In this document: positions 2,856 through 61,929 of the stretch, one piece after another
Layout: each line of letters starts with the position of its first letter
Position numbering within the stretch: position 1 is the stretch's first letter
Virus record (IMG/VR): IMGVR_UViG_3300025030_000076
Coordinates: 16,306 to 80,305 of that record
DNA length: 64,000 nt
DNA from: a virus
Direction: 5' to 3' (one strand)
Translations under genes and position numbers: made by a program
The notes under the pieces: generated by a model
The model's input: only the letters and a program-made list of their open reading frames with translations
What the model was told of the DNA's origin: nothing
The model's database searches: none

Positions 2856-2886
2856 TTATAGTCCGCATGTTCGAATTTTAAAAGTC

Positions 2887-3966: not shown

Positions 3967-3977
3967 TATCTACCTTT

Positions 3978-4286: not shown

Positions 4287-4297
4287 GTCAAAACTCC

Positions 4298-5947
4298 TTA
4301 TGCAAATAGATTTACGCCCGTTGCAGAACCGAGTCTTGCTTCCAATTCCGCTACTCGTGTTTGCAAGTTGGCGATAACTGATAGAACCGTGTTGCCCTCA
4401 TCCTGGGTAACGAACCCATAAGGCGCAACATTGGTCAAGTTCTGGATTGCGTAATCCGGCGTCGGGGCTGTGAACGTGATGGTCGTCAGTTGTGTAGTGA
4501 GTGCCGCACCGCGCACAACCGTGGTCCCGCCGTAAAATGCCAGCCGCGCCGCCGTCCCGCTGGCTTCTATCTCCATCCCCAAGCGCGCCGCCGTGTCGTA
4601 GGCTGAGAGAGACAGTTTGGCTTTGCGTGTGGCGTTGGTTGCATCAATCCATGAGGTTGAGATAATTCCTTGAGGCTGGGAAGTGTTGTTGGTGGCTGTC
4701 TCTGCATACCATGACAGCCCAACACCAAACCCTGCCGAACCACCTGTTGATGCCGTTGAAACAATTGCCTGTATTCGTTCAACTTCTAGTACCGCGTTTG
4801 TCGTTGTGGTCGAATCGATAATATGCAATTTTGCAGAAGCAGAAGTACTACCAATCCCAACGCTCCCGGCAATTATCATACCGCTTGCTGGAGCAGCAGC
4901 AGATCGATAAGATGCATCCGAACCTATGGATACCCCTCCACCAATATATAACTGCGAACCTGGCTGAGTTGCAGAAATGCTTGAGTCGCCAATAACAACT
5001 TTTGAGCCGCCAGTTTTGCCAAGATTCAAAGCTCCATACGCTAAGTTGTCGCCCCTCACAACGTCCCATAATGGCGCTCCAGTTGAGATTACTAATCTGT
5101 TAAAATATCCAGTGGACAATCCCAAATAATCAACATCTCCAAACCATAACTGCTTATTAGCTAGGGCGTTATATCCCAATGCCACAACACAACCAGTCCC
5201 GGTGTCCACACCCCCAATAGACATACCTGTGAAAATAAATCCGTCCGTCGTTGCTTTTTGTGTGAGCGTAAGACTGGTTGTTGGTACGCCATTGATACCA
5301 ACTCTTGCGTTTGTAGTGTCCACAATAAAGACATTATCTTTTACCCCATCCTGCTCCGCTAGCAAGGCCAAAGTAGAATTAACATTTATTTTTTGAATGG
5401 CGGTAAACACATTCGCCGTCGCCAGCAGCGCCGCCGTCCCTGTCGCCGGAACAGTCAGCGTGAAGCCTCCCAGCGCAACCGTTCCCCCGCCTGTGATGGT
5501 TGTATTCGATGCGTTGGTTATCGTGCCTGTGTTCGCGACACCAGTCCCGCCGTTGGCTGCCGAGAGGGGCAGGGTAAGCGCGGCCTGTCCGCCAATCGTA
5601 GCCAGAACCGCCGTCCCGTTTGCATCGTCCAAGATCGTGCGTGCGAAGGCAGACAGCCCCGTTTCTGCCCACGTATCCAGCGCCGTTGTATAAAGCATCT
5701 TGTCGGCGGCTGTGCCGAGCAGGGCGATGCTGGTCAGGGTTGCGTCAAGCGGCTGTCTGTTGGCGACCTTGTAATCCAACGACGCCGTGACCGCCGAGCT
5801 ATCTACCCCGACCTTCGCTTCAAGCGCCTCCACCGCGTCGTTGATGCTGGCGTGCTGGGTCGAGTGTAGGACGGCGGGCGTAGAGAGATTGTCCGCCGGG
5901 GTCGGGTTGGTAAAGTCATCGAGTGTTGTTGGGAATGTGGTCGGCAT
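4298..5947 (-). CDS. Fibre-like virion structural protein
   Basis: Thr/Ala/Gly-rich; VGIG repeats; C-terminal coiled coil; N-terminus shared with 57629-59422. Confidence 0.65.
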   Translation of the reverse strand: MPTTFPTTLDDFTNPTPADNLSTPAVLHSTQHASINDAVEALEAKVGVDSSAVTASLDYKVANRQPLDATLTSIALLGTAADKMLYTTALDTWAETGLSAFARTILDDANGTAVLATIGGQAALTLPLSAANGGTGVANTGTITNASNTTITGGGTVALGGFTLTVPATGTAALLATANVFTAIQKINVNSTLALLAEQDGVKDNVFIVDTTNARVGINGVPTTSLTLTQKATTDGFIFTGMSIGGVDTGTGCVVALGYNALANKQLWFGDVDYLGLSTGYFNRLVISTGAPLWDVVRGDNLAYGALNLGKTGGSKVVIGDSSISATQPGSQLYIGGGVSIGSDASYRSAAAPASGMIIAGSVGIGSTSASAKLHIIDSTTTTNAVLEVERIQAIVSTASTGGSAGFGVGLSWYAETATNNTSQPQGIISTSWIDATNATRKAKLSLSAYDTAARLGMEIEASGTAARLAFYGGTTVVRGAALTTQLTTITFTAPTPDYAIQNLTNVAPYGFVTQDEGNTVLSVIANLQTRVAELEARLGSATGVNLFA

Positions 5948-7924
5948 TTACTTACTCTCTATCTCTGTGATCTTGCCGTCCGCACCGCGCTTGATGGTCG
6001 CCTTTCGCGGCTTCCGCTCCTCTTTCTGGATAACAACATCGGACGGCTGGACCGTGATATTATTCTCTACCGGAGTTGGCTGGACCGTGTTAGTCACACT
6101 TACTGCCACCTCCGACGGATGGATGACGGGCGCAAATGCTACCTCCGACGGATGGATGATTGGCGCGAATGTCACGTTCGGCGGGGGTAGGGGATTCGCA
6201 ACCGCCTGCTTCATTGCCGCCAGATTTTCCGTCATTGCCTTGACCGCTGCAATCGTTTCTTTGCTGGTCATATCCACGTTAGCAGGATTTGTAATGTTGA
6301 TAATCATTTCATCTCTCCCATGTGCGACTGTCGGCTCCACATTCGCGGCGACAATCGCCCGCTCGATGGTCAGCGCCAGCGCCTTGATCGCTTCGGTATT
6401 ATCGGGTACAGGCTGATACACCGGCGCGGGCGTGGTCGTCTCGCCGATTACAAATGCCGCCGCAATATCTCCCTCATTCTTTGCGTCCGCCAGTCTGAGG
6501 CGGATCGGAGCGGCAATGGTCTCGCGCAAGTGTTTGCACTCCCAATCCACCGCCGTGCCTTTGCCTTTCGCGTGCCACTGCCGCGCCCGGTCGTACCATA
6601 ACGCCAAATCCTTGATTTCATCGGCGGTAAGGTCAAAAGACTTCTTCGGCTCCTGCTCCTCTTCCGACTCCGCCACGACCGGCTCGCCTTGCTCCGCGAC
6701 CGGCGGCTTCGTCTGCTCCGCCACGTTTTGCCGCGCTTCCTCTTTCGCCGAGATAAGTTTCTCCAATTGCTCCTGTTGTGCCTTGTCAAGATCGTAGCCG
6801 AGTATTGACATCCCCAACTGCGCCACCTCCGGGTTATCTGCAATGGAAGATACAAGAGAGCCGAGCGACTCTGCCCGTTTACTTTCATCCTCCTGGAATA
6901 TCTCAAGCGCCTCCAGGTTGAAGCGCATCTTGTAGCCGTAGGGCTTGAATAACTGGTCGGTGAATGTTTCCTCAATTGTCTGCTTGATGCCGACAAAGCG
7001 GGAGGCGGTGTACCACTGTTTACGCAGCGCGTCGAATTCGCTGGCGAAGGCGTTGTCGGACATGAACAGGGCGGTCGGGATGCCGAAACTATCCGAGACA
7101 GATTCCTTTGCGTCCCGGCGCAGTTCGATATATGATTGCTTGAGTTCATCCATCCCAGCGCCGACGCGGATAAGAGATAGCGCATCCGCGTTGACGATCT
7201 TTGCCAGCACGTTGAAGCCACCGCGCAACAAGCGGTCGAAGAAGCCCTCCGCCTTTTCCCGCTCCCCCTGGTTCACCATCCCTTTCGCGCCGAGCAGGGT
7301 TATCGGAACGAAACCACGCTCGCCATACATCCGCATGGTGTTTTTCATGTTCCAGATGACCTGCGCGTCCAACGTTGCATTGCCGAGCGGGTGATTTTCG
7401 GCGGGACCAATCTCCACATCGCTATCTGGCAGCCAGAAATAAATGATCTTGTTCGGATATACCTTCTCCGCCTTGCCCCGTTGCGCCGTACGCTCGAACC
7501 ACTGCAAGCCGTTTATGTCGATATAGGGCTGGATCGTTCCCGGCGCACAGTATTGCAAGTTAACGATCATTTTGGTGGTGCGCCATGGAATGAGATACGC
7601 CGCGCCGCCGCATAGTGATGAGGCGATCAGGTAGATGATCTTCTGCGGGTTCGGCAGCCCGCCCAGGTTGTTTTTCCAGTTCGCCGACGTATCGAAAATA
7701 TCGTCGTTCTTATCGAGTATGTCGAACGGCAGGGACGAGATCGCCACGGCGGTCATATCTACCGCGTGTGCCAGGTCAGGGACAAACTTTTTTAGCGACG
7801 TGACGTTACCCGTCTGCCCAGTCCTGGACGCCTCAAGGAACCCCTCAATGCCTCCCCAGGGAGAAAAATCAAATCCAGATTTATAGGGGTTTGGACTTGC
7901 AAAAATGAATGGTGAATTCGTCAT
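5948..7924 (-). CDS. Portal protein with long C-terminal extension
   Basis: Directly after terL; SDSFGIPTALF portal-like motif; Pro/Val repeats at the C-terminus. Confidence 0.8.
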   Translation of the reverse strand: MTNSPFIFASPNPYKSGFDFSPWGGIEGFLEASRTGQTGNVTSLKKFVPDLAHAVDMTAVAISSLPFDILDKNDDIFDTSANWKNNLGGLPNPQKIIYLIASSLCGGAAYLIPWRTTKMIVNLQYCAPGTIQPYIDINGLQWFERTAQRGKAEKVYPNKIIYFWLPDSDVEIGPAENHPLGNATLDAQVIWNMKNTMRMYGERGFVPITLLGAKGMVNQGEREKAEGFFDRLLRGGFNVLAKIVNADALSLIRVGAGMDELKQSYIELRRDAKESVSDSFGIPTALFMSDNAFASEFDALRKQWYTASRFVGIKQTIEETFTDQLFKPYGYKMRFNLEALEIFQEDESKRAESLGSLVSSIADNPEVAQLGMSILGYDLDKAQQEQLEKLISAKEEARQNVAEQTKPPVAEQGEPVVAESEEEQEPKKSFDLTADEIKDLALWYDRARQWHAKGKGTAVDWECKHLRETIAAPIRLRLADAKNEGDIAAAFVIGETTTPAPVYQPVPDNTEAIKALALTIERAIVAANVEPTVAHGRDEMIINITNPANVDMTSKETIAAVKAMTENLAAMKQAVANPLPPPNVTFAPIIHPSEVAFAPVIHPSEVAVSVTNTVQPTPVENNITVQPSDVVIQKEERKPRKATIKRGADGKITEIESK

Positions 7925-7933
7925 TTGTCCTCT

Positions 7934-9178
7934 TTAGCTAACCAGCCATGTATCGATCATGTCGCCCTCGTGCGCGTACCTGCCAGCGGCTATCAGATGG
8001 TCGTTCTTCTCGACCGGCTTACGTATTGCGTTGCCGTTAGCATCTTCCTGCCAGTGAAAAGTAGAAATCTCGTTCTTTGCGTTGACGCATTTCGCATCAA
8101 TGATGATCTCTTGCTGTTGCAGCCATTGGATACCGAATAATACGCTATCCTTGCCCTTGACCGCCGCAAGCGCCGAAACGCCATACTGCTGTAATTCGGC
8201 GATGGATTTCGGCTCGGCGCTATCACAGACTACGTAATCCGAGCCGATCCTGTTCTTTACTTCCACGGCCAGCAGGTCATTTGTAAGCCCGCGCTCGTAC
8301 AACTCATCGAAGATATAAATGCGTTTGTGCTTCGCGTCATAGTGAGACACCCACAGGGCGGCGGGGTCTGCTGAGAAGCCGAAATCCAGGCCGTTGCGGT
8401 GGTTGGTGAATTGCGCCTGCATCCCGGACAAATCCTCTACCCGCCAGTTGGTGAAGATGACATAGCCGAGAATGCCCCAGTTGCCTTCTGAATATACGTC
8501 AAAATAATACTTATCCTTCTCGTTTTCCAAGCCCCTAACATCTTCCCTGGTAAGAAACCTATTGTCTCGGTATGTAGTTTTTAGAATGTATAAATCGGGC
8601 GACTTATATTCTTTCTGGTCGTCAGTCCACCCAATCATTGAGAAGTAATCCGCATAGATAAAATGTGATTGTAGAATTGGATTAAATGACAGCATCAGCC
8701 TCTTAGGTGTTTTCTCGCTCCCCCCGCGCTGACGCTTCAAAAGTTGTTTGATGATTGACGAACGTTCTATTTCTGTTGCCTCTTCAATGCGAACATCAGT
8801 GAATACACCTTTAGCCGGGGTCAGGCTTTTTAGCTTCTCAACATCATCTAAACCTGCAAATATTATCTGGTATCCGTTTACACAAGTCACTGTCCCGTCT
8901 GTTTTATTTATAGAGAACAAATCAGACAAACCCCAATCCCTAATAACTTTTGTTATCTCTTGCACAACTGAGCCGCGAAGCGTACGCGCCACCTGCCTGC
9001 AAACAAGGAAATTACGTCCGCCCTTCATAATGTCCCTGATGTCACGTTGCGCCAAAAAAACAGACTTTCCAGACGACGCACCGCCATAGTAAATTTGTAT
9101 TCGCGCCATTTCGTTTAAACACGGAATATAGGCATCATTAAACACGGCGGGGTCTATATCTACATTAATCATTGTCAT
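7934..9178 (-). CDS. terL: Terminase large subunit (PBSX/SPP1-like)
   Basis: GGASSGKS Walker A, IEEATE Walker B, SFNP, GLDFGF nuclease motif, DSAEPKSI. Confidence 0.95.
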   Translation of the reverse strand: MTMINVDIDPAVFNDAYIPCLNEMARIQIYYGGASSGKSVFLAQRDIRDIMKGGRNFLVCRQVARTLRGSVVQEITKVIRDWGLSDLFSINKTDGTVTCVNGYQIIFAGLDDVEKLKSLTPAKGVFTDVRIEEATEIERSSIIKQLLKRQRGGSEKTPKRLMLSFNPILQSHFIYADYFSMIGWTDDQKEYKSPDLYILKTTYRDNRFLTREDVRGLENEKDKYYFDVYSEGNWGILGYVIFTNWRVEDLSGMQAQFTNHRNGLDFGFSADPAALWVSHYDAKHKRIYIFDELYERGLTNDLLAVEVKNRIGSDYVVCDSAEPKSIAELQQYGVSALAAVKGKDSVLFGIQWLQQQEIIIDAKCVNAKNEISTFHWQEDANGNAIRKPVEKNDHLIAAGRYAHEGDMIDTWLVS

Positions 9179-9179
9179 T

Positions 9180-9800
9180 CTATTTCTTTTTCCACGTCCA
9201 ATGTTTACCTAATGTATTTGTATTGCCTTTCATTGCATTAGCTATGCCTTGTTTATTCTTGTCTGAAAGCGGCTTGCCTTTTAGTGCGGCTGAAATCTTT
9301 TGTTTCGCCTTCGCTGTGTGCGCTCCTTTAGAAACACCAGTATGAGATACAGAGATTTTCCGCTTAGTTTCTTCGGATGGTCGCCATCCATTTGCCTTGT
9401 GAGACATGGACATTTTCTGCCGAGTTTCAATTGTGTGCCTCTCACCAAGGTTGGCAATAGCAAGTTTCAGCCTAGTCGCCAATGAGCGCGGCGTTCCAGC
9501 CTTGCTGCCAGCCGTCACACAGACGTTGTATTCAGGATTACAGGAATCTAGATAATCCTGTTCGTAAATCAAAAGGTCGGTGCGTAAACAGGCAACAAGT
9601 ATTACAAAATCGAAGTTTTTAGCCCCGTATTTATTCCAAGCGCGTTGCAGATGTATGCTGTGATGTTTCCCCGCGTTAAGTAATGAGATGTGTTTTTTCC
9701 ATCGGCTTTCAATATTCCACGACGAGCCTACGTATCTTTTGCCGTCTGCTTTGTTTACAATGGCATAAACCCCACTTGTCTTGTGTGTTAAAATGTTCAT
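9180..9800 (-). CDS. GIY-YIG homing endonuclease with NUMOD3-like repeats
   Basis: SGVYAIVN...YVGSS; HTIETRQKMS and SEETKRKIS repeats; GGAG RBS before MNILT. Confidence 0.9.
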   Translation of the reverse strand: MNILTHKTSGVYAIVNKADGKRYVGSSWNIESRWKKHISLLNAGKHHSIHLQRAWNKYGAKNFDFVILVACLRTDLLIYEQDYLDSCNPEYNVCVTAGSKAGTPRSLATRLKLAIANLGERHTIETRQKMSMSHKANGWRPSEETKRKISVSHTGVSKGAHTAKAKQKISAALKGKPLSDKNKQGIANAMKGNTNTLGKHWTWKKK

Positions 9801-9888
9801 ATCAGCACTCCTATGCTGGTCACGCCCTCGGATGTCCAACCATCGCGGGGGCATTTCCTGAATATTTGTTCTATTATAGCACGTGACG

Positions 9889-10275
9889 TTATTCATCAAT
9901 ACCTTTGACTGTGACAGTAATTGTCAGCGGCGCGCCAAGTGGCCCGCCGATTTCAACATTATCCCCATACCCGCGCTTTTTGCCGCGCTTGGACAGTAGC
10001 CATTTGGCGTCGCCAGCATCAACCGGCTTCTGCGTCTGCTCCTGTTCCTTTACGGCATAGGCGATATTCTTGACCAGCACGCTTTCTGCCATGTCAAGCG
10101 GTAACTCGCACTCCGCATCATAGGCGGCCTGTGCTTCGGGGTATACAGGAATAGCATCCTTAGCCGTAGACCATGAGACATCCAGCCGCGCCGCGATAGT
10201 CGAGACAATGCCGCCGCTGCCTGCGATTGCCTTGAGTAGTTGCGCCTTGCGTATCTTGGTCGGATGCTTTGCCAT
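9889..10275 (-). CDS. terS: Terminase small subunit (putative)
   Basis: N-terminal HTH-like segment; AKWLLSKRGKKRGYG motif; upstream of terL. Confidence 0.7.
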   Translation of the reverse strand: MAKHPTKIRKAQLLKAIAGSGGIVSTIAARLDVSWSTAKDAIPVYPEAQAAYDAECELPLDMAESVLVKNIAYAVKEQEQTQKPVDAGDAKWLLSKRGKKRGYGDNVEIGGPLGAPLTITVTVKGIDE

Positions 10276-27068: not shown

Positions 27069-27098
27069 TTGACAAATTCAATGTTCCTGCTTTATAAT
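27069..27098 (+). promoter_or_regulatory. Rightward consensus sigma70 promoter driving the cassette-array operon
   Basis: TTGACA-18 bp-TATAAT. Confidence 0.8.
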
Positions 27099-27123: not shown

Positions 27124-27390
27124 ATGAACAAATTCGAAGAATTGCATGGTAGTCAAACACAAACTATCGCGGCGCTGGAAGCGGAGAATGCGAAACTGAG
27201 GGAGTTTGTCAGTAAATTTTCTGACAACTTCAGCGATTGTGATTACTGTAATGGCAAAGGCGTTTTTTCGGATGATATGATTGAGTGCCGCGTCTGTAAC
27301 GGGACCGGAAAACACATAACCTCAATTGGTGTGATGTTCGTGGAATTACCTGAAGAAGCCCGCGCCCTTCTCGCCCAGGAGCCAGCATGA
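27124..27390 (+). CDS. Hypothetical protein with DnaJ-like CxxCxGxG repeats
   Basis: CDYCNGKG...CRVCNGTG. Confidence 0.75.
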   Translation: MNKFEELHGSQTQTIAALEAENAKLREFVSKFSDNFSDCDYCNGKGVFSDDMIECRVCNGTGKHITSIGVMFVELPEEARALLAQEPA

Positions 27391-27528
27391 CCCGCCTCAC
27401 CTTCGACCCTCCCTCCGAATCCCCGGACGGCGATCCCGTCTGCCGGATATGCGATCACGAGATGGAGTACAACCCACTCACCCGCGAGTGGGAATGCGTC
27501 CAGGATCACGACGCGCTGGAAAACGAAG

Positions 27529-27723
27529 ATGAAATACCGACCTGATCTCACGGACTACCTGCCTTGCATCGAAGCACTTGCAGATAAATTGAATGAGGAT
27601 GCGATCTACAAAATGAGCAGGACTGATGCGGTAAAAATCGCCCTGGAAAAGGCACTTGAGAAAGTCGTGCCTGATGTTGTAATAAACAAAAAGCGGAAAA
27701 GGTACATCAAGCTGGATTTTTGA
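27529..27723 (+). CDS. Small ribbon-helix-helix-like protein
   Basis: MSRTDAVKIALEKAL pattern. Confidence 0.5.
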   Translation: MKYRPDLTDYLPCIEALADKLNEDAIYKMSRTDAVKIALEKALEKVVPDVVINKKRKRYIKLDF

Positions 27724-27809
27724 AAATGAGTGCGACGATGTACACTCCGCTCATACCCTAGTTAGACCCCTGTCTTGCTGGCAGGGTATCACCCAAAAGG
27801 AGAAAAAAC

Positions 27810-28097
27810 ATGAGCGCAGCAAGTGATTTGATTGAACGAATGGAACGCGAAACAGGTCTGCGGATTGATTCTGATGACCCAAACAATATGGCAATGGCTG
27901 GTTTATTCGGCGCAGTTGCCCGCATGATGGGCAAGTCAAGCCACGATGAGCGCGATGATGTTGTGGCTGGTCTCTTGGTCATGCACCAAATGACCCCAGA
28001 GTATCGCAATGAACAAGAGAGTAAACAAATGATTGCTTCTCTTTTGTCCAGTGGTCTCTCCCCTGATGATATTCGCAATATGTGGGGCGGGGTCTAA
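27810..28097 (+). CDS. Cassette 1 hypothetical protein
   Basis: AGGAG RBS; TAA stop lies in the R'' box GTCTAAC. Confidence 0.8.
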   Translation: MSAASDLIERMERETGLRIDSDDPNNMAMAGLFGAVARMMGKSSHDERDDVVAGLLVMHQMTPEYRNEQESKQMIASLLSSGLSPDDIRNMWGGV

Positions 28098-28182
28098 CAA
28101 ACGCTTGCAGTGGACTTGGCGGTACGGTGTGTCTTTTTGCGAAGGTTACGAACCGCCAAGCCACTAAAGCGAACCGTTCGGC
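28092..28182 (+). repeat. attC-like site 1
   Basis: GTCTAAC..CGCTTGCAGTGGACTTGGCGGT..ACCGCCAAGCCACTAAAGCG..GTTCGGC, with unpaired C and A on the left arm. Confidence 0.9.
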
Positions 28183-28214
28183 GGCTACCTTGCCAGCCGA
28201 GAAGTGAGAAATAA

Positions 28215-28448
28215 ATGGGTATTTATGAATGTAGTTGTTTGCCAGCAAATCTAAGCCCAAGCGGTGAATTTGAGTTGTGCGAAGTTTGCCGCCTGGAAGA
28301 AGAAAACGAAGATGATAACGCCGCCGAACAAAGCCTGCACCTGACGCTTGGGAGTCTGCGCCTAAAAAAGCAGTTTCCAAGCCGAAAGTTTTATCCACAT
28401 CTCAAACCTTATCCAAGCCCACCAAGCGCAGGTAAAGCACACCGTTAG
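28215..28448 (+). CDS. Cassette 2 Cys-containing protein reading through attC
   Basis: ORF track; stop lies in the R' GTTAG. Confidence 0.65.
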   Translation: MGIYECSCLPANLSPSGEFELCEVCRLEEENEDDNAAEQSLHLTLGSLRLKKQFPSRKFYPHLKPYPSPPSAGKAHR

Positions 28449-28450
28449 GT
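28323..28450 (+). repeat. attC-like site 2
   Basis: GCCGAAC..CCTGCACCTGACGCTTGG..CCAAGCGCAGGTAAAGC..GTTAGGT. Confidence 0.85.
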
Positions 28451-28455
28451 GGCTT

Positions 28456-29082
28456 ATGGCTAAATTTGATACGAAGTTTGCACACGCAAGAGAAGATTGG
28501 GAAACTCCCGATAGTATCTTCAAACCGTTGGAGGCTGAATTTGACATCGTGATTGATGTTTGTGCTTCCGAGCATAACAAGAAGTGTTCACTAAGATATA
28601 CCATTGAGGAGAATGGTCTTTTGCAAGATTGGTCACAGTGGCATGCGTGTTGGATGAACCCGCCATTTGGTCGGCAATCTGTGTGGGTCAAAAAGGCTTA
28701 CACGGAAAGCCTGCGAGGAGCAACGGTTGTCTGTCTACTTCCTGCCCGCACTAATACTAATTGGTGGCACGACTTTTGCATGAAAGGCACGGTTCGCTTT
28801 TTGCGTGGTCGTCCCATCTTTGTCGGAGCCAAACATGGTTTACCCCAGCCGTTGGCTGCTGTGATGTTGAGCGCCAGTGTGCTCGCGGCCGCATTGGTCA
28901 GGGTCAGAATGTTTGTGGCGGGTGGGATGATTGCCGCCGCCGTGATGTGCATTGTCATATTCCAGCCACCTAACACATGCGTGCAGTCGGACGGGGCTTA
29001 CTGTGCGTGCAAAGAAGGGTTATCCTTCACGGTGGCGAATGGCACAAATTATTGTCTTGCGTGCGGTCAGCCCCGCCGCTAA
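28456..29082 (+). CDS. Cassette 3: phage-type DNA N6-adenine methyltransferase with a 31-aa insertion
   Basis: WETP, DVCAS, WMNPPF, LPARTNTNWWH, FLRGR. Confidence 0.85.
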   Translation: MAKFDTKFAHAREDWETPDSIFKPLEAEFDIVIDVCASEHNKKCSLRYTIEENGLLQDWSQWHACWMNPPFGRQSVWVKKAYTESLRGATVVCLLPARTNTNWWHDFCMKGTVRFLRGRPIFVGAKHGLPQPLAAVMLSASVLAAALVRVRMFVAGGMIAAAVMCIVIFQPPNTCVQSDGAYCACKEGLSFTVANGTNYCLACGQPRR

Positions 29083-29097
29083 CGCAAGCCGTTAGCT
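28968..29097 (+). repeat. attC-like site 3
   Basis: ACCTAAC..GCGTGCAGTCGGACGGGGCT..AGCCCCGCCGCTAACGC..GTTAGCT. Confidence 0.9.
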
Positions 29098-29120
29098 GGC
29101 ACTTTGCAAAGGATGTAATT

Positions 29121-29285
29121 ATGAGTATTGTCAGACCGCACGGAAGCAGTACCAAGATTTTTCGTGAACTACGTAAAACAAGATGTATTTTTTGTGGGTT
29201 CGGCGTGAAACTTGTTGTCAGGAAAACTGGCAACAAAGTCGAGAAAGTATGTCCGAAGTGTGGCAGGAAGTTTCAGAGGTCATGA
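29121..29285 (+). CDS. Cassette 4 zinc-ribbon protein
   Basis: CIFC...CPKC. Confidence 0.65.
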   Translation: MSIVRPHGSSTKIFRELRKTRCIFCGFGVKLVVRKTGNKVEKVCPKCGRKFQRS

Positions 29286-29289
29286 AGCG

Positions 29290-29379
29290 GGCTAACAAAT
29301 GCGTGCAGGCGACATGGGTGGGCGGCGGTCAAAATCGGACAGTCATAGCCACCCATGCGCCTAACGCAAGCCGTTCGGC
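29290..29379 (+). repeat. attC-like site 4
   Basis: GGCTAAC..GCGTGCAGGCGACATGGGTGG..CCACCCATGCGCCTAACGC..GTTCGGC. Confidence 0.9.
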
Positions 29380-29408
29380 GGCTACCTTATAGCCAGAAGG
29401 AGCAAACA

Positions 29409-29678
29409 GTGAAAATTTTAGGTGATACTATCGTGTGTAAGATCATGCACTCTCAATACTGTTTTTCGTGTGGTCGCCATTTGGCAACTGCCAAAACAAC
29501 CAAAGCCACCGAAAAGATTGTTTTGAAAAATGGCGGCTCGATCCGTAAAGATGGTTTTTATCGTGCGTACTGCGCGTCCCATGTGCCGCCCAACACGGCG
29601 TGCAGCGGATTGGCGGATGAATTATTACCCGGTATTGCGTTGCCCGAATGGATTTTGAGAAATCCCGCCAACCGCTAA
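29409..29678 (+). CDS. Cassette 5 CxxC protein reading through attC
   Basis: AAGGAG RBS, GTG start, stop in the L' TAA. Confidence 0.7.
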   Translation: MKILGDTIVCKIMHSQYCFSCGRHLATAKTTKATEKIVLKNGGSIRKDGFYRAYCASHVPPNTACSGLADELLPGIALPEWILRNPANR

Positions 29679-29693
29679 CGCAAACCGTTAGCC
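29588..29693 (+). repeat. attC-like site 5
   Basis: GCCCAAC..GCGTGCAGCGGATTGGCGG..CCGCCAACCGCTAACGC..GTTAGCC. Confidence 0.9.
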
Positions 29694-29717
29694 CGCTCTT
29701 TCGGGCAAGGAAAATCA

Positions 29718-29831
29718 ATGAACAAGAAACGAGAACTAATATTTATCACAGTATGGCTGGCTGGAGTCATAGGTTTGGTTTTGGTTGTATTACAGCTTCG
29801 CCAAATTTGTCCGTGTTGGTGGCTACCATGA
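29718..29831 (+). CDS. Cassette 6 small single-TM peptide
   Basis: MNKKRELIFITVWLAGVIGLVLVVLQLRQICPCWWLP; AAGGA RBS. Confidence 0.6.
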   Translation: MNKKRELIFITVWLAGVIGLVLVVLQLRQICPCWWLP

Positions 29832-29835
29832 AGCG

Positions 29836-29960
29836 GTCTAACAATGCGTGCAGTTGACGGCGGGAAGGCTCCCGGCTGTACATGCAACGCCTACCAATTA
29901 GAGAACTTCGGTTGTAAATGTGGTGCGGCAACCCGCCGCAACTAACGCAAACCGTTGGTG
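29836..29960 (+). repeat. attC-like site 6
   Basis: GTCTAAC..GCGTGCAGTTGACGGCGGG..CCCGCCGCAACTAACGC..GTTGGTG. Confidence 0.9.
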
Positions 29961-29985
29961 CGGACTTAGTTAGGAAAGGTAAAAT

Positions 29986-30219
29986 ATGTATCTAAAACTC
30001 ATGAATGATTACGAGGAAGAATTGAGACTAGCAGGAAGAAAAATTAAGGTAAACGATCATTTTGCAAGGTTTGATTTTGCAAGTTGGCTAGATAGACAAG
30101 CCGCCCAACAACCGCTTGCACAGCCGACTGGTTGCTGGGCGTGTGGCGATAAAGGTATCATCCGCGCCGATGGTATCGCTATCAACTGTTCGGTTTGCAA
30201 TCCCGCAACCAGCCGCTAA
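29986..30219 (+). CDS. Cassette 7 protein; its C-terminal CxxC...CxxC is encoded by the attC loop
   Basis: ORF track; stop in the L' TAA. Confidence 0.75.
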   Translation: MYLKLMNDYEEELRLAGRKIKVNDHFARFDFASWLDRQAAQQPLAQPTGCWACGDKGIIRADGIAINCSVCNPATSR

Positions 30220-30233
30220 CGCAAGCCTTGGGC
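30103..30233 (+). repeat. attC-like site 7 (R' degenerate, CTTGGGC)
   Basis: GCCCAAC..CTGGTTGC..GCAACCAGCCGCTAACGC. Confidence 0.75.
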
Positions 30234-30253
30234 GGAAGCCCTGCAAGGTAAAC

Positions 30254-30454
30254 GTGAAAGAAAGTTTTTGTGAATGCAATCACCCCCAAAGGTTTCATGG
30301 TACGCACTTGTCTGATGATACTTATGATGGTGCTTGCGTGCGTCAAACCTGCAAATGCCGTAAATTCCGCCCAACAAAGCGTGGGCTTTGGGCGTGGGCT
30401 AATTATCGTATTGGTGAATTTGTGTGGTCTTGCCGAGCGTGGTTGGATGTATAA
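30254..30454 (+). CDS. Cassette 8 Cys/His-rich protein
   Basis: GTG start; CECNH...H...C...CKC. Confidence 0.6.
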   Translation: MKESFCECNHPQRFHGTHLSDDTYDGACVRQTCKCRKFRPTKRGLWAWANYRIGEFVWSCRAWLDV

Positions 30455-30485
30455 ATCGCCAGCCAGTAATGCAAGACCATTGGAC
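30369..30485 (+). repeat. Degenerate attC-like site 8
   Basis: TTCCGCCCAAC matches the cassette start (C)TTGGGCGGAA; right arm eroded. Confidence 0.55.
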
Positions 30486-30506
30486 AGTGCGCTGTAAGGA
30501 GTAGAA

Positions 30507-30770
30507 ATGAACGTTGATTTAGAAAAAGAGATCGACACTGTTGCGGAATTCTGCTGTGACAATCCTAACTATAATGAGTTGCGCGAAGAAATTGCAACTC
30601 TTGTCCGTAAATATCATCAAATTGCTGGAGACTTGGCGTTGGAGGTTTGGAGATTGAGCCGCCCAACTACGGGTGCAGTTGACTCGGCGGAGATTCCCGA
30701 AGTTTTCAACCTGCAACCAAAAGTGATTGCAAAAGGTCGTATTGTGTTCGATGACCCGCCGAGCAACTAA
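30507..30770 (+). CDS. Cassette 9 hypothetical protein reading through attC
   Basis: AAGGAG RBS; stop in the L' TAA. Confidence 0.75.
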   Translation: MNVDLEKEIDTVAEFCCDNPNYNELREEIATLVRKYHQIAGDLALEVWRLSRPTTGAVDSAEIPEVFNLQPKVIAKGRIVFDDPPSN

Positions 30771-30779
30771 TCGTTAGCT
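30661..30779 (+). repeat. attC-like site 9
   Basis: GCCCAAC..GCAGTTGACTCGGCGG..CCGCCGAGCAACTAA..GTTAGCT, with a shortened L'-R' spacer. Confidence 0.8.
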
Positions 30780-30803
30780 GGCTCTTCAAGAAAGAAGGTA
30801 ATC

Positions 30804-31016
30804 ATGGAAAAATGTGATCGTTGTGGTAAAAAAGTAAAGGTGTATCCAACTCATTATTCGGCATGGAATGAACTTTGCCTGCCGTGTATCAAACTCATGG
30901 GGCTTGGTTTGCCTGAAATGCAACCAGCTAACAAAAGCGTGGAGCCGACTTGTCCAAACTGCGGCGAACCATTGCATTATCACCCTACCGCCGACTGCAA
31001 AGTAGCCCGCTCTTGA
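30804..31016 (+). CDS. Cassette 10 multi-CxxC protein
   Basis: CDRC, CLPC, CPNC. Confidence 0.75.
   Translation: MEKCDRCGKKVKVYPTHYSAWNELCLPCIKLMGLGLPEMQPANKSVEPTCPNCGEPLHYHPTADCKVARS
30926..31008 (+). repeat. Degenerate attC-like site 10
   Basis: CCAGCTAAC matches the cassette start GTTAGCTGG; R' is GTAGCCC (one T lost). Confidence 0.6.
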
Positions 31017-31027
31017 AAGGATAGGTT

Positions 31028-31240
31028 ATGAACTATACAAAAGCGAATCAGGCTCTTGCTAATGAGTTCGGCGCAGGTCAGGTCGAAGTCCATAAGGCAA
31101 AGAAGGGTGATCCGTGGGAATACACACTCTGGTTCTTGGATGATGATCCTGCGCCTGGCGTAATCGAGAAGGCTAAGAAAATCGTTGGTCGCTTCGAGCC
31201 GTCTCGGTGGTTCGATAAGTTGAAATTCCATTCCGAGTAG
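31028..31240 (+). CDS. Cassette 11 hypothetical protein
   Basis: RBS present; stop just before the R'' GGCTAAC. Confidence 0.75.
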   Translation: MNYTKANQALANEFGAGQVEVHKAKKGDPWEYTLWFLDDDPAPGVIEKAKKIVGRFEPSRWFDKLKFHSE

Positions 31241-31242
31241 CG

Positions 31243-31370
31243 GGCTAACACGGGCTTGCACAGGGACGGCTTGCCAGCCGAACATCGCGTGCAGTGGACT
31301 TTGGCTACTGTGTGGCAAATTTTTTGTGGCTCTATATCGCCGCCAAAGCCACTAACGCAAACCGTTGGGC
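31243..31370 (+). repeat. attC-like site 11: truncated left arm fused to a complete second attC (31277-31370)
   Basis: GGCTAAC..GCTTGCAC, then GCCGAAC..GCGTGCAGTGGACTTTGGC..GCCAAAGCCACTAACGC..GTTGGGC. Confidence 0.85.
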
Positions 31371-31397
31371 GGACTAGCTCAACAGAAAGATTTTGAA

Positions 31398-31622
31398 ATG
31401 AATTGTCAATATTGCAAACATTCGATAGACGAGCATGATAGTGGGGGATGTCATCGTAAAATTGACGGCGGTATCTGCGATTGTAATCATTCCCCAAACT
31501 ATATCGCCGCCCAACAAATGCGTGCAGGCGACTTGGCTACTGGTTGCCCGTTCTGCGGTGTCTCCGCCGAAGATATTGCATTGCTCAATGAATCGCTTGC
31601 GCGTGAAACGCCAAGCGTCTAA
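31398..31622 (+). CDS. Cassette 12 Cys/His-rich protein reading through attC
   Basis: CQYCKH...C...CDC; CPFC in the attC loop. Confidence 0.75.
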   Translation: MNCQYCKHSIDEHDSGGCHRKIDGGICDCNHSPNYIAAQQMRAGDLATGCPFCGVSAEDIALLNESLARETPSV

Positions 31623-31638
31623 CCCAAGTCCGTTGGGC
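31509..31638 (+). repeat. attC-like site 12
   Basis: GCCCAAC..GCGTGCAGGCGACTTGGC..GCCAAGCGTCTAAC..GTTGGGC. Confidence 0.85.
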
Positions 31639-31667
31639 GGACTACCCGACTTTGAAAGGAAAATAAA

Positions 31668-31856
31668 ATGTCAGACGAGAAAAAACAAGTAGTAATTCAC
31701 AGGGATGGCTCTGTGACCGAGCAAAGAAGTAATGATCTTCCAATTGTTTTGCTGCCATCAAAGCAAACCGCCCAACACGGCGTGGAGCCGACTGTTTGTC
31801 CTAAGTGCGGTCACGCTGTTGGTGGTCATAATGCACTTTGTCCAATTGGTAATTAG
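31668..31856 (+). CDS. Cassette 13 protein; CPKC..H..C encoded in attC
   Basis: AAGGA RBS. Confidence 0.7.
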   Translation: MSDEKKQVVIHRDGSVTEQRSNDLPIVLLPSKQTAQHGVEPTVCPKCGHAVGGHNALCPIGN

Positions 31857-31881
31857 TGGCGGCTCACGCGCCCCGTTGGGC
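31770..31881 (+). repeat. attC-like site 13
   Basis: GCCCAAC..GCGTGGAGCCGAC..GCGGCTCACGC..GTTGGGC. Confidence 0.85.
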
Positions 31882-31908
31882 GGACGCTCCGCCAGGAAGT
31901 GAGGAAGC

Positions 31909-32130
31909 ATGAAAATTTGTGATGCTTGCGGAAAAGCATGTTATAGTTTTGCAACTTACAAAATATGTAGGCATATTGTTTGTAGCCGTCACGAATATCC
32001 AGAAAGTTGCCCTGTGTGCGCCGCCCAACACGGCGTGCAGCGGACGACTGATGACGTCCGCGAAAATGTTGGTGTTTCTGAAAATGGTGAACTGCATTCA
32101 GTAATGCGTGGAACAACCCGCCGCCGCTAA
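31909..32130 (+). CDS. Cassette 14 Cys-rich protein reading through attC
   Basis: CDAC...CPVC; stop in the L' TAA. Confidence 0.75.
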   Translation: MKICDACGKACYSFATYKICRHIVCSRHEYPESCPVCAAQHGVQRTTDDVRENVGVSENGELHSVMRGTTRRR

Positions 32131-32146
32131 CGCAAGTCCGTTGGGC
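32023..32146 (+). repeat. attC-like site 14 (terminal)
   Basis: GCCCAAC..GCGTGCAGCGGAC..GCCGCTAACGC..GTTGGGC. Confidence 0.85.
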
Positions 32147-32152
32147 TCCAAT

Positions 32153-32173
32153 AGCCCCCACTTAGGGGGCTTT
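32153..32173 (+). terminator. Hairpin terminator closing the cassette operon
   Basis: AGCCCCC-ACTTA-GGGGGCT-TT. Confidence 0.65.
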
Positions 32174-32250: not shown

Positions 32251-32739
32251 ATGGAAGAGATTTTAACACGCTTTTGTCCAAGGTGCGGGGTAGAGCATAA
32301 ATTATCGGAATTCAAAAGAGAACCCAAGCCAGGTAGATACCCAGGGTCATGCGTTTACAGCGGACGAGATGCGCGTATTTCTAAACCACCTAAAACAAAA
32401 ACAACAAAACCGCCTCCCGTTTATCTAGACGCCAGTTATCTTCCAAAAAAGAGGGTGGTAGGGTTATTTCCGCGTATTCAGACAATATTTTCCCATTCTT
32501 ACCGCGCTCGCGCCAACGGCAACAATGGGAAAATCATATATCAGGAATGGGAGGATCTGAAAGAAAAATATAACAATACCTGTCTGTGTTGTGGCAGACG
32601 ATCTCCTGAAGTCGAAATAACTCTTGACCACGTACTCCCCTTGAGTATGGGGGGTAGGAATACTATTGAGAACGCCCAGCCGCTTTGTCTTTCTTGTAAC
32701 TGCAAGAAAAGCACGAAATACATTGATTATCGCCCCTAA
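32251..32739 (+). CDS. HNH endonuclease
   Basis: CLCC...DHVLP...GG.N...N.QPLC..CN. Confidence 0.9.
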   Translation: MEEILTRFCPRCGVEHKLSEFKREPKPGRYPGSCVYSGRDARISKPPKTKTTKPPPVYLDASYLPKKRVVGLFPRIQTIFSHSYRARANGNNGKIIYQEWEDLKEKYNNTCLCCGRRSPEVEITLDHVLPLSMGGRNTIENAQPLCLSCNCKKSTKYIDYRP

Positions 32740-53091: not shown

Positions 53092-54104
53092 GTTTCGATC
53101 AGGGGATTGGTAATCCCGGCCTTTCGTATATTTTCGATAAGTCTCTGTCTTTGACCTTGACTCATTATTAATATCGGCGCGGCGTTGGTAGGTCGTTCCT
53201 GTACCGGCTTGCCGTTGTACGTCTGCCCACGGTACGCGGGATCATTGTCAATGTAGTCCAAGATGTTCAATTCCACCTGTGCCAGCAGATGCCACGTAAT
53301 ATCACCCATGCCCCACACGTTGAGCGGCAAGCCCTCAAGCGTCCTGAGCCTGTCCACGCGGGCGGATATATTGTCTGTGATGTGCTTCGCTGACTCCTGC
53401 GCCACGTCCAGCCGCCTGAATTGCAACTGGTACGCGGGCGCGTTCTCAAGCTCGTACTTCCGCACGTCTATCAATTCGAAGCCGTGCCGGTATCCCAAGT
53501 CGAGATAGTTTCGCAGCGTGAAATGGTTGATGTGCTTCGTGTTGAAATCCAGAATCGGCATTTTCCAGTGTTGCAAAAGCCCCGTCGCGTCCGGCCCATC
53601 TATAATGAGTAGGCCGTCAGGCGCAAGCGCGCCGCTGATGCGCTCCATCGTTTCGGGCAGATCGTAGACGTGCTCAACAACGTGTGAGGCGTAGATAAGG
53701 TCACATTGCTGGGGCAGGGGGGCGCCCGCGCCCACGCAGACGGCGTTGATATATCCCCTGTCCCGCAACATATCTACGATGATGCTCCGACCATCGTCTC
53801 CGTTGCCGCCGAAGTCCACAATGACGGCCTCTCTCTCGTGCTTCGCCAGACCGCTTATCACGACCGCGTCCATTTTTAGCCGCTCGATATTGGATGGGTT
53901 GTTGATGCCATAACCGTAGTATTTCAGGTAATACTCATTGAGCATCGCCTGATTGAAATCCCCGTCGCCGTAGAGCATCGAACAGGCGTAACAGGTATAC
54001 CAGATGATCTCGGACGGCAAGGGCCACGAATCGGGCACGCGGTAGGGCATACGGAATACTTCTGTGCGGGAGGGGTGTTCACAGACGGGGCAGGGGCGGG
54101 TCAT
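53088..54104 (-). CDS. Class I SAM methyltransferase-like protein with sugar C-methyltransferase-like architecture
   Basis: N-terminal CPVC/CYAC, VDFGG, SHVVEH, HINHFT, C-terminal VWGMG/YIDND. Confidence 0.75.
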   Translation of the reverse strand: MTRPCPVCEHPSRTEVFRMPYRVPDSWPLPSEIIWYTCYACSMLYGDGDFNQAMLNEYYLKYYGYGINNPSNIERLKMDAVVISGLAKHEREAVIVDFGGNGDDGRSIIVDMLRDRGYINAVCVGAGAPLPQQCDLIYASHVVEHVYDLPETMERISGALAPDGLLIIDGPDATGLLQHWKMPILDFNTKHINHFTLRNYLDLGYRHGFELIDVRKYELENAPAYQLQFRRLDVAQESAKHITDNISARVDRLRTLEGLPLNVWGMGDITWHLLAQVELNILDYIDNDPAYRGQTYNGKPVQERPTNAAPILIMSQGQRQRLIENIRKAGITNPLIET

Positions 54105-54307
54105 TCTTCCTCCACGAAAGAAGAATTTGCCCAATAATAGACAATTCCGTAATTTCTTGATATACCCTCGTAATTCTGTTCAACAGTAACCCACTCAAGC
54201 CATCTGGTTTCAGAGACATGATAGTTTTCGGTTGTAACCGGGAACCACGCAAACCACCTTTTTATTCTTTTTTCACCAACCTGCGGAATTATTTTAATAT
54301 TTCTCAC
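54101..54307 (-). CDS. Hypothetical protein (copy B only)
   Basis: FAWFPV...RWLEWV motif; coupled to neighbours. Confidence 0.65.
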   Translation of the reverse strand: MRNIKIIPQVGEKRIKRWFAWFPVTTENYHVSETRWLEWVTVEQNYEGISRNYGIVYYWANSSFVEEE

Positions 54308-55311
54308 TTTTGTATTCTTTCTGCGAATTCTTCGCGGTCATTGTCGATGTTATCTGGTAATGCCTGTATATAGTCGCACGTACCACAAGCCGCGTTCTCG
54401 CTCTTGCGCGCTTCCAGGTGCATCAGCCGGAAGTCACGCAATCGTGCGCCGTTCCAAATCTGGTACAGACTTTCATTCTTGATGTTCCCTAATTGGTGTA
54501 GATGGTATTGGTCATCGTTGCATATTGAAATGTCGCCGTTGGAGTTGATCGCGAGCATGTAGAGCACCAGCGGGCAGGCTATTTTCTGTGTGCGCGGCGT
54601 GCCATCAAAACTCTGATTAGTTCCCAGCTTCCAATCGAATTTGTCGGACGTACTCCAGCCATGCAGGTTTTCTATGGCGATGAAATCACAGCGGTCAGAG
54701 AAGTCGTCAAGGAATTTCTGCTTGTCGCCGTCCGTCAAACCCACGTCTGCTATCTTTGTTGACACCCGTGTACTCGTATCCCGGCTCCGCTCGAACAGGT
54801 CAAGCACACCATCCCTAAACTTTTCGTAATCCACTTTGACGCCTGCAATGTCGTAAAACATCTGCGCGTTTATGCCTGTTACACTCACGCCGATCATATC
54901 CAGCCCGCACGTTACCAGTTTGGCATTTAGTTCAGGCCGCAAAACATGACCATTTGTTTTCACCCATATACGCTCTGACACATTTGCATCCTTCATGTAG
55001 CGCACCATATCGGTAAAGCGGGGGTGTAGAGTTGGTTCGCCATCTTTATATAGATTCGCCTGCTTACATGGTCTGTCAAATTCTCGCAGGTCGTCCACGA
55101 TCTTGCAGAACAGTTCGTAACTCATTAGTACGTTCTTGCGCCCGTACTCACGCAGTAAGTCGGGGTGTCCAGTCGGGCAAAATTTGCATCTGTAGTTACA
55201 CGCGTTGCACGGATCAATAAAAAGCGTCCACGGCGCGGGCAATGGTACGACATCTATCAGCCGCTCCCGCCGCTCGCCGCGCAAGTCTTTCGCCTGAATG
55301 AGTTTAGCCAT
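54304..55311 (-). CDS. Radical SAM/SPASM protein (copy B)
   Basis: CNYRCKFC; C-terminal Cys motifs. Confidence 0.9.
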   Translation of the reverse strand: MAKLIQAKDLRGERRERLIDVVPLPAPWTLFIDPCNACNYRCKFCPTGHPDLLREYGRKNVLMSYELFCKIVDDLREFDRPCKQANLYKDGEPTLHPRFTDMVRYMKDANVSERIWVKTNGHVLRPELNAKLVTCGLDMIGVSVTGINAQMFYDIAGVKVDYEKFRDGVLDLFERSRDTSTRVSTKIADVGLTDGDKQKFLDDFSDRCDFIAIENLHGWSTSDKFDWKLGTNQSFDGTPRTQKIACPLVLYMLAINSNGDISICNDDQYHLHQLGNIKNESLYQIWNGARLRDFRLMHLEARKSENAACGTCDYIQALPDNIDNDREEFAERIQK

Positions 55312-55993
55312 TTTTTGAAAGCCACCCTCCGTCAACGGTAATAACCTGACCGTAAACGTATGTACTCGAAATTAGATACATCAGCGCCCCGGCTATCTCC
55401 TCCGGCTTCCCGAACCTGCCCGCGGGCGTGATGCTTTCAAGTAGCTTGCGCCGTTCGGGTGTTATGTATTCATCTACCATGCTAGTCTGCGTTAAACCGG
55501 GGCACACTGCATTGACCCGAATCAGCGGCGCGAGTTCGATTGCCATCGCCCGTGTGAGGCCGAGCAGACCATGTTTCGCGGCGACGTAGCCGGCTATGTT
55601 GCGTGCTCCCTGGAAGGCGGACGTAGAAAGGATATTGACGATATGCCCGCCGCCGTGCGCGAGCATGTGCCGGGCTGCTTCCTGGGACAGAAAGAACGGG
55701 ACGGTAAGCATCAACTCGATTTGTTCACGCCATCTTCCCGCGCTGTATTCGATAAGATTTTGATGATACTGCGAGCCTGCGTTGTTGACAAGGATGTCAA
55801 TACTACCAAGTTTGTCTATCACTTCAGATACAACCGGGTTACGTCCAAAAAAATCTGTCAGGTCAGCATGGATGAATAAATCACAGTCCGCCCTTGTCCT
55901 TCCTGCCACCGCGACGGTATGCCCTGCGTCCTTCAATGCACGGACGCATGCCGCGCCGATCCCGCGTGAGCCGCCGGTAACAAGGGCGATCAC
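55304..55993 (-). CDS. SDR oxidoreductase (copy B)
   Basis: TGGSRGIG, YVAAK. Confidence 0.95.
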   Translation of the reverse strand: MIALVTGGSRGIGAACVRALKDAGHTVAVAGRTRADCDLFIHADLTDFFGRNPVVSEVIDKLGSIDILVNNAGSQYHQNLIEYSAGRWREQIELMLTVPFFLSQEAARHMLAHGGGHIVNILSTSAFQGARNIAGYVAAKHGLLGLTRAMAIELAPLIRVNAVCPGLTQTSMVDEYITPERRKLLESITPAGRFGKPEEIAGALMYLISSTYVYGQVITVDGGWLSKNG

Positions 55994-56178: not shown

Positions 56179-56233
56179 GCCAATCCTTTCTACTCGATTC
56201 GATTATAGTCCGCATGTTCTAATTTTAAAAGTC

Positions 56234-57627: not shown

Positions 57628-57628
57628 A

Positions 57629-61920: not shown

Positions 61921-61929
61921 TTGTCCTCT

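Follow-up and report, generated by a model that had tools for sequence, protein, structure and literature searches.

A 64-kb window, comprising positions 16306-80305 of the 80,305-bp IMG/VR virus record IMGVR_UViG_3300025030_000076 and representing the whole stretch of DNA analysed here, contains between 27761 and 32146 an array of 14 co-oriented gene cassettes, each with one small open reading frame (ORF) having a purine-rich ribosome-binding site and each delimited by recombination sites of the attC type known from integrons. The identity of this element as a genuine attC cassette array, present in a phage and devoid of an integrase, is secure. Its best explanation, which we hold to be probable, is a cluster of attC sites lacking an integron integrase (CALIN) that is combined with an attI-like entry site in the early operon of the phage and whose cassettes are exchanged by an integron integrase (IntI) acting in trans.

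Architecture of the attC sites

About 14 co-oriented repeats can be recognized between 28089 and 32146 by reading of the sequence and with a repeat finder. The left half of the repeat conforms to ..RYYYAAC-N3-4-GCGTGCAG-N2-3-GAC.. and the right half to ..CTAACGCAARCC-GTTRRRY, with 30-90 variable bases between the two halves. Rfam, which has no attC model, returned no relevant family. A covariance model designated R1 was built exclusively from 27 bacterial attC sites of Anaerolineales metagenome-assembled genomes (MAGs), belonging to an attC family that adjoins true integron integrases in Anaerolineales genomes; the stems of these 27 sites are 97.8% paired, with compensatory changes in 10 of 17 L-stem pairs. 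When R1 was run over the entire window with filters off, 12 sites were matched at 33-86 bits (E from 3e-22 to 2e-7), all on the plus strand, co-oriented, inside 28092-32146 and spaced 231-645 nt, and outside the sites of the array no match below E=1 was obtained. Repeats resembling attC had been proposed at this locus by an original prediction made from the sequence alone, according to which a covariance model should detect about ten or more sites, and the 12 sites with E<=2e-7 agree with both expectations. The predicted number of 14 attC sites needs a small correction, as there are 13 sites, including S8 with 13.7 bits (E=0.06), and the fourteenth, S10 (about 30926-31011), is a half-site that retains only R''/L'' and gives no R1 match. 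An additional orphan left half lies at 31240-31273 within cassette 11. Site lengths range from 86 to 131 nt, AAC/GTT is kept in 11 sites and approximately 11 sites look intact, and the G of G|TT has been lost in S7 (CTT) and S8 (ATT). The array is thus partly decaying, and the degenerate sites fuse cassettes 7-9 and 10-11, each of which would move, if at all, as a block.

Folding of the bottom strands as DNA revealed the terminal stem, in which a T and a GC on the R''/L'' arm remain unpaired, in keeping with the unpaired bases that had been noticed on the left arm beforehand; for S8 the expected hairpin was not formed. R1 aligns end to end, and with the same bulges, with the attC site located between orf2 and orf3 of Tetrasphaera phage TJE1 (1016-1075, 19 bits), and it likewise aligns end to end with the attC site of blaGES-1 in a class 3 integron (12 bits). 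On account of these alignments the architecture of the sites is judged to be canonical, and their sequence family to be that of Anaerolineales. Assignment to the sequence family of TJE1 was considered and rejected, as R1 reaches only 19 bits there: the architecture is alike, but the family differs. With R1 as the model, the window contains what defines a CALIN, namely at least two close, co-oriented attC sites detected by a covariance model, and the adjacent intI gene that defines a complete integron is absent from the phage.

Cassette boundaries

In an integron array, the TTRRRY after each G|TT is part of the following cassette and pairs with the R'' of that same cassette. Complementarity was scored over the seven variable positions beyond AAC/GTT. 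Between cassette starts and their own R'', 83 of 98 positions are complementary, as compared to 60.8±4.5 in shuffles, none of which reached 83 in 100,000 trials, and comparison of R'' with R' of the same attC gives 63 matches, which is the random level. The self-complementary cassette ends of the original prediction are thus confirmed quantitatively. The same rule is visible in bacterial arrays and in the blaGES-1 cassette of KJ631731. Such complementarity is, on the evidence of sequence, what the insertion of circular cassettes at G|TT leaves behind, and it would not arise through homologous recombination or duplication.

An attI-like boundary and a predicted early transcription unit

In the window the array starts with GATGTACACTCCGCTCATACCCTA followed by GTTAGACCCC, with the junction at G|TT. 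This conserved ..CATA|GTT type of boundary is common to six phages, namely that of the window and those of the IMG/VR loci L091, L050, L102, L073 and L007. Within five of the six that were compared, 15 of the 24 nt upstream of G|TT are invariant, and these 24 nt show 80% pairwise identity versus 63% for the adjacent leader ORF. The first cassette differs from phage to phage, and in each case 9-10 of the 10 positions at its start match the reverse complement of its own R''. In bacteria, the attI core beside intI reads ..ATAAAACATA|GTT in the genomes G001 and G002, and ..TATAATTAATA|GTT, ..TAAAATAAATA|GTT and similar sequences are found in other MAGs. The boundary of L102, ..CCGCATAAAACATA|GTTGGGC, has 17 consecutive bases in common with attI of G002, and attI3 of the class 3 integron KJ631731, GATAAACCATAA|GTTAGAC, also resembles the phage boundary. 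The left boundary of the array thus looks as an attI-type insertion point would look.

The predicted early promoter upstream of the leader ORFs is the sole strong promoter on the plus strand between 26700 and 32150, with none comparable inside the array, and a predicted intrinsic terminator follows the last cassette (Table 1). Because of this arrangement, with a consensus promoter before the array, none within it and a terminator behind it, the leader genes and the array most likely form one early transcription unit. The first leader ORF (27124-27390) encodes a DnaJ-type CxxCxGxG zinc protein (PF00684, 29 bits, below cut-off). The third (27529-27723, 64 aa) has no Pfam or PHROG match, and its homologues, with 57-68% amino acid identity, immediately precede the arrays of L050, L102, L073 and L007. 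It is missing in L091, although L091 keeps the attI-like boundary.

Table 1. Coordinates of the cassette array and associated features. Positions are those of the window except for integrase genes, which are given in the coordinates of the named IMG/VR contigs; bits and E values are those of R1 and z values refer to bottom-strand folds.
Feature	Position	Strand	ORF or content	attC site	Remarks
Predicted early promoter	27069..27098	+	TTGACA-18-TATAAT		12/12 consensus; Pc counterpart
Three leader ORFs	27124-27390, 27387-27545, 27529-27723	+			
attI-like left boundary	27737..27767	+	GATGTACACTCCGCTCATACCCTA-GTTAGAC		Insertion point after G27761
Cassette 1	27762..28176	+	27810-28097, 95 aa, function unknown	S1 28092-28182	54.6 bits, E 2e-13; ORF stop TAA inside R''; start GTTAGACCCC is reverse complement of own R'' flank, 10/10
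Cassette 2	28177..28444	+	28215-28448, 77 aa	S2 28323-28450	86 bits, E 3e-22; end-to-end alignment including loop
Cassette 3	28445..29091	+	28456-29082, 208 aa, Dam-type DNA adenine methyltransferase	S3 28968-29097	50.4 bits; final 37 codons of ORF within attC, with Cys pairs
Cassette 4	29092..29373	+	29121-29285, 54 aa, CxxC..CxxC	S4 29290-29379	55.7 bits; z = -3.45; weak zinc-ribbon Pfam matches, below cut-off
Cassette 5	29374..29687	+	29409-29678, 89 aa	S5 29588-29693	62.7 bits; ORF stops at TAA of L'
Cassette 6	29688..29954	+	29718-29831, 37 aa, hydrophobic	S6 29836-29960	65.6 bits; 33-codon open frame in loop (29844-29945)
Cassette 7	29955..30227	+	29986-30219, 77 aa	S7 30103-30233	38.2 bits; degenerate R' = CTTGGGC; CxxCG..CxxC ORF tail inside attC
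Cassette 8	30228..30479	+	30254-30454, 66 aa	S8 30369-30485	Decayed attC
Cassette 9	30480..30773	+	30507-30770, 87 aa	S9 30661-30779	33.2 bits, E 2e-7; z = -3.37
Cassette 10	30774..31005	+	30804-31016, 70 aa, zinc-ribbon-like	S10 from 30926	Half-site; fused with cassette 11; weak zinc-ribbon Pfam matches
Cassette 11	31006..31364	+	31028-31240, 70 aa	S11a 31240-31273 (orphan); S11b 31277-31370 (complete)	S11b 66.2 bits; start G-TAGCCCGC matches S11a R'' GCGGGCTAAC save a 1-nt deletion
Cassette 12	31365..31632	+	31398-31622, 74 aa, Cys-rich	S12 31509-31638	37.1 bits; z = -3.37
Cassette 13	31633..31875	+	31668-31856, 62 aa	S13 31770-31881	38.2 bits; CPKCG..C ORF tail inside attC
Cassette 14	31876..32146	+	31909-32130, 73 aa	S14 32023-32146	50.7 bits
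Predicted intrinsic terminator	32153..32171	+	7-bp G+C-rich stem, then T-rich tail		
Metagenome contig X18	26801-28314 and 29871-33500				Covers both array junctions
Metagenome contig X19	26697-28027 and 29957-32889				Covers both array junctions
IntI in L058	5418-6482				
IntI in L110	1743-2732				
IntI in L045	8911-9894				
IntI in L085	5099-6124				
IntI in L059	1036-2022	-			
IntI in L107	8-757				

Possible sources of the integrase

A profile search of the complete 80,305-bp record returned no match to PF00589, TIGR02249 or PF00239. The phage itself encodes neither a tyrosine or serine recombinase nor an integron integrase, and the earlier observation that a tyrosine recombinase is missing therefore extends across the entire record. 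An exact-pattern scan with the L'-R' consensus over one genome per prokaryotic species located the pattern in at least 119 prokaryotic stretches, which among the matches listed belong overwhelmingly to MAGs of Anaerolineales and other Chloroflexota. In two Anaerolineales genomes, IntI genes with TIGR02249 scores of 460 and 438 bits, against a cut-off of 265, lie divergently and directly beside the array, and these proteins are 52-63% identical to annotated integron integrases, including that of class 3. IntI accompanied by similar attC sites, which it had been proposed to look for in the predicted host, is present in Anaerolineales, and the assignment of the window sites as true attC sites of a family adjoining bona fide IntI genes in Anaerolineales is supported.

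Integrase genes are also observed in IMG/VR contigs. Among the matches listed, six IMG/VR contigs with this attC type encode a full IntI (TIGR02249, 307-428 bits; Table 1). The records underlying L058 and L110, of about 37 kb, have direct terminal repeats and are classified as complete, and in both the intI gene is located just upstream of the array on the same strand, in contrast to the divergent orientation in Anaerolineales chromosomes. A search of the six IntI-bearing contigs for the phrog_2 large terminase gave one weak match only, and they are regarded as candidate viral contigs. In L071, a viral contig of 9.8 kb, a 62-codon frame (258-392) just upstream of a 10-hit array corresponds to the C-terminal end of IntI only (TIGR02249 positions 268-314, 56.8 bits) and looks like an intI remnant.

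Proposed exchange in trans and alternative explanations

According to the preferred explanation, cassettes would have entered as circles at G|TT, with the ..CATA|GTT boundary as the attI-like entry point, and IntI provided in trans from the host chromosome or from a co-resident element would gain, lose and exchange cassettes by acting on bottom-strand hairpins in single-stranded replication intermediates. The array would be transcribed from the promoter at 27069-27098 to the terminator at 32153, and the phage would acquire rapidly changeable early accessory proteins, consisting of a Dam methylase and many zinc-ribbon micro-proteins, which could plausibly function in host takeover or counter-defence. 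The interpretation of the original prediction is supported, and we regard the provision of IntI in trans and continuing exchange as well-supported inferences.

Relatives of the array were found through the attC pattern; a RecT-based search for relatives in IMG/VR yielded one distant locus only. The L'-R' pattern is present in at least 114 IMG/VR contig stretches, and the matches listed include 79 IMG/VR loci with correctly spaced left and right halves and, with R1, 181 matches in co-oriented arrays of 2-11 sites at 33 other viral loci. The close relative L091 has flanks with 73-94% DNA identity and tail genes with 88-94% protein identity, and at the same locus it carries an array of eight R1 matches plus one site read by eye, with different cassettes. 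Comparison with related phages, as originally suggested, thus revealed a different cassette set at a fixed position, and the sole piece common to the two arrays is the attC site S14 (32020-32135 versus 6878-6993 in L091, 91% over 116 nt). Together with its 36-codon coding loop, this attC follows unrelated ORF bodies in the window and in L091.

Several observations weigh against the preferred explanation. The homology between S14 and L091 starts at R'', a breakpoint that cleavage by IntI at R' does not explain, and exchange within the conserved left arm, perhaps with the involvement of RecT, is the simplest reading of this joint. S7, S8 and S10 are degenerate, and these three fail the test of attC architecture. 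Fold z-scores are modest, ranging overall from -1.05 to -3.45, with about -3.4 for the sites with short loops and values between -1.05 and -2.0 for several of those with long loops. The likeness to attI concerns a short A/T-rich core, and upstream IntI-binding repeats as in bacterial attI were not recognized. Assignment of the host is based on attC family and composition only. Finally, no recombination event was observed: the many joints and loose ends at attC arms in metagenome contigs all have a side of less than 30 nt within repeats; since they come moreover from runs stored as contigs, their interpretation as excision or reordering events was rejected.

These points are partly accommodated by an alternative that is considered unlikely, in which the array is a fossil, captured from the host chromosome as an integron segment or as single cassettes and no longer served by IntI, with its diversity generated by deletions and by homologous recombination in the conserved 25-30-nt attC arms, for example through the phage RecT. 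A RecT is indeed encoded by the phage, the S14 site shared with L091 is linked to a different ORF with its breakpoint at R'', and degenerate S7, S8 and S10 as well as the orphan left half of S11 are what deletions would leave. However, exchange in the arms would not maintain the variable 7 nt complementary to the own R'' of each cassette, the first cassettes of six phages meet the boundary exactly at G|TT and match their own R'', and AAC/GTT and bulged stems are kept in eleven sites.

It is very improbable that the repeats are unrelated to integrons and represent regulatory stem-loops, terminators or modules of the promoter-stem-loop (PeSL) type that merely resemble attC. PeSL modules of T4-type phages combine an early promoter with a stem-loop, flank small early accessory genes and are shuffled by homologous recombination, being thought to favour modular shuffling. 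Going by this description, the window is similar in that short repeats flank and separate small early accessory genes in a hyperplastic region, and the hairpins could attenuate transcription. However, no promoter-like sites were found inside the window repeats, as would be required of a PeSL; the repeats belong to an IntI-associated attC family and carry the signature of circular cassettes, they share their geometry with the attC sites of TJE1 and blaGES-1, and they score up to 86 bits with a model built from bacteria only, by which this explanation is largely refuted. Least credible of all is an assembly chimera, in which a fragment of a bacterial integron was joined to a phage contig at the repeats: the 80-kb contig is odd in its composition of 1.47 genome units from two diverged variants and assemblies do break at attC repeats, but both array junctions are bridged without differences by contigs X18 and X19 of runs not flagged as source, arrays occupy the corresponding position in L091 and in four other phages, and the cassettes are about four times shorter than those of bacterial arrays.

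Cargo proteins and coding attC loops

The cargo of the array comprises one Dam-type methylase and 13 small ORFs (37-95 aa). The methylase is matched by PF05869 (100.7 bits) and phrog_111 (155 bits), and besides it searches of the cassette proteins against Pfam and PHROGs gave only sub-threshold zinc-ribbon matches, several of the proteins containing CxxC pairs. The cargo is hence phage-like in the way originally described, with a methylase and small ORFs of which several are weakly zinc-ribbon-like. In the methylase, the PF05869 profile is covered over positions 7-128 of 169 only, and the last 80 residues consist of a hydrophobic stretch followed by an attC-encoded Cys-rich tail, so that the enzyme may be truncated or remodelled.

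In 10 of the 14 cassettes the ORF extends 27-41 codons into its own attC, and six of these ten ORFs have as their stop codon the TAA found in the conserved L' motif CTAACGCA. Among 141 phage sites, 76% have an open loop in the frame that this L' TAA closes, as compared to 39% and 22% in the two remaining frames, whereas in 175 bacterial sites the three loop frames are alike, with 58, 61 and 56% open. Based on this difference, the variable attC loop has often become coding sequence in phages. CxxC pairs are also commoner in phage loops than in bacterial loops.

With respect to a pool of cassettes linking phages and bacteria, which the original prediction had raised, the link is weak: S2 is an attC site of typical bacterial type, but no cassette body of the window is present in the sampled bacterial arrays, and none is shared with other phage loci either. 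Apparent matches of cassettes 2 and 14 elsewhere were discarded, as they lie in attC and not in the cassette body. Similarly, a protein of the phage array L095 resembles the product of a gene beside a single attC in the Anaerolineales contig L179, and this was not accepted as a clear array-to-array link.

Comparison with known cassette systems

Integrons are regarded as bacterial devices. Clusters of cassettes in phages have nevertheless been known since 2023, and the window represents a large and clean example with new details. A survey of 10,705 phage genomes recovered three complete integrons, one In0 and 17 CALINs, the latter defined by at least two attC sites and having 2-4 sites each, with three attC sites and four ORFs in TJE1; methyltransferases were noted among the cargo, five of six phage attC sites tested recombined with attI1 under IntI1, and the attC sites of TJE1 were recombined by IntI1 in experiments (Qi et al. 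2023, PMC9892861). The array described here resembles these CALINs in its co-oriented, attC-bounded cassettes of one ORF each in a phage without intI, in having a DNA methyltransferase among its cargo and in the attC geometry of TJE1. It differs from them in its 13 sites plus a half-site, in a conserved attI-like core at a locus that is fixed among relatives with different cassettes, in its position behind a predicted consensus early promoter and in the entry of most ORFs into their own attC, and it differs from TJE1 in the Anaerolineales type of its attC sequence. Our search of the literature found nothing on large arrays in phages of Chloroflexota, and the size of the array, its attI-like site, a locus that stays fixed in a lineage while the cassettes turn over, and the coding attC loops go beyond the literature found.

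The closest bacterial counterparts are the sedentary chromosomal integrons of Anaerolineales and other Chloroflexota (e.g. JAEURJ010000013.1), with sedentary chromosomal integrons in general (Vibrio-type) named as the same close system. Common features are the attC family, with R''-L'' of the form ..YAAC-N3-GCGTGCA..GAC and L'-R' of the form ..CTAACGCAARCC-GTTRRRY, the boundary rule and an attI core reading ATAAAACATA|GTT. The phage differs in having no intI and in its dimensions: bacterial sites are uniform, 123-133 nt long with a conserved non-coding loop, and form long co-oriented arrays with sites 0.7-1.9 kb apart and cassettes of about the same size, whereas the phage sites (58-135 nt in other phages) have variable, often coding loops and the window cassettes measure 233-648 nt with a median of about 270. 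With class 1 and class 3 mobile integrons the array shares insertion at G|TT, cassette starts complementary to their own R'' as in blaGES-1 (KJ631731), an upstream promoter, here predicted, for promoterless cassettes and an attI3 core similar to the phage boundary. Unlike mobile integrons, it has no integrase gene, its platform is a virus genome and not a transposon or plasmid, and its cargo consists of phage-type micro-proteins instead of resistance genes.

Altogether the window presents a large array with the full platform bar the integrase, at a conserved locus, with the attC family of the presumed host and early genes of phage type. If IntI of the host serves such arrays, new early or counter-defence genes could be sampled by site-specific recombination and phages could ferry cassettes between hosts. 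Furthermore, the attC family provides a host prediction, Anaerolineales, for many uncultured phages, and the use of attC loops as coding sequence is relevant to the freedom of the attC site to vary. A broader reading, which we advance tentatively and to which we give somewhat less than an even chance, is that throughout a whole group of Chloroflexota phages the standard hypervariable early region is an integron platform without integrase, made up of an attI-like entry site, an early promoter and a cassette array and served in trans by IntI that is host- or phage-borne, with a phage-adapted pool of very short cassettes, the attC loops having been recruited for zinc-ribbon tails ending at the L' TAA. 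If this holds, integrons would be one of the chief drivers of accessory-gene turnover in these viruses, and phages would routinely carry cassettes from one bacterium to another.

The phage record and neighbouring genes

The phage, of about 54 kb and of groundwater origin, is of the tailed double-stranded DNA type, since the window encodes a large terminase (7934-9178), a portal, a major head protein, a tape-measure protein and tail fibres; RecT and a DnaB_2-type replication protein are encoded as well. Its host is probably a bacterium of the order Anaerolineales (Chloroflexota). A blastn search of GenBank phages with the array gave no match, and the stretch was found in groundwater, soil and sediment metagenomes of 14 studies, possibly representing few campaigns. 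Contig positions 2-26300 and 54808-80305 are only 72-96% identical and there is no exact terminal repeat. The 80-kb contig hence corresponds to approximately 1.47 genome units, with two diverged variants joined head to tail, possibly as a strain chimera or in tandem, and the genome length of about 54 kb given in the original prediction rests on this imperfect repeat. Within the window, the region of internal resemblance comprises 1-10000 and 53400-64000. The cassette array is present once in the record.

A gene for an HNH endonuclease (32251-32739; PF14279, PF01844) separates the end of the array from the promoter region that follows. The right boundary was considered as the other half of an original attI and rejected, as it is not conserved between the window and L091 and the HNH gene is inserted there. 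Because the relative L091 is without it, the HNH gene looks like a separate insertion.

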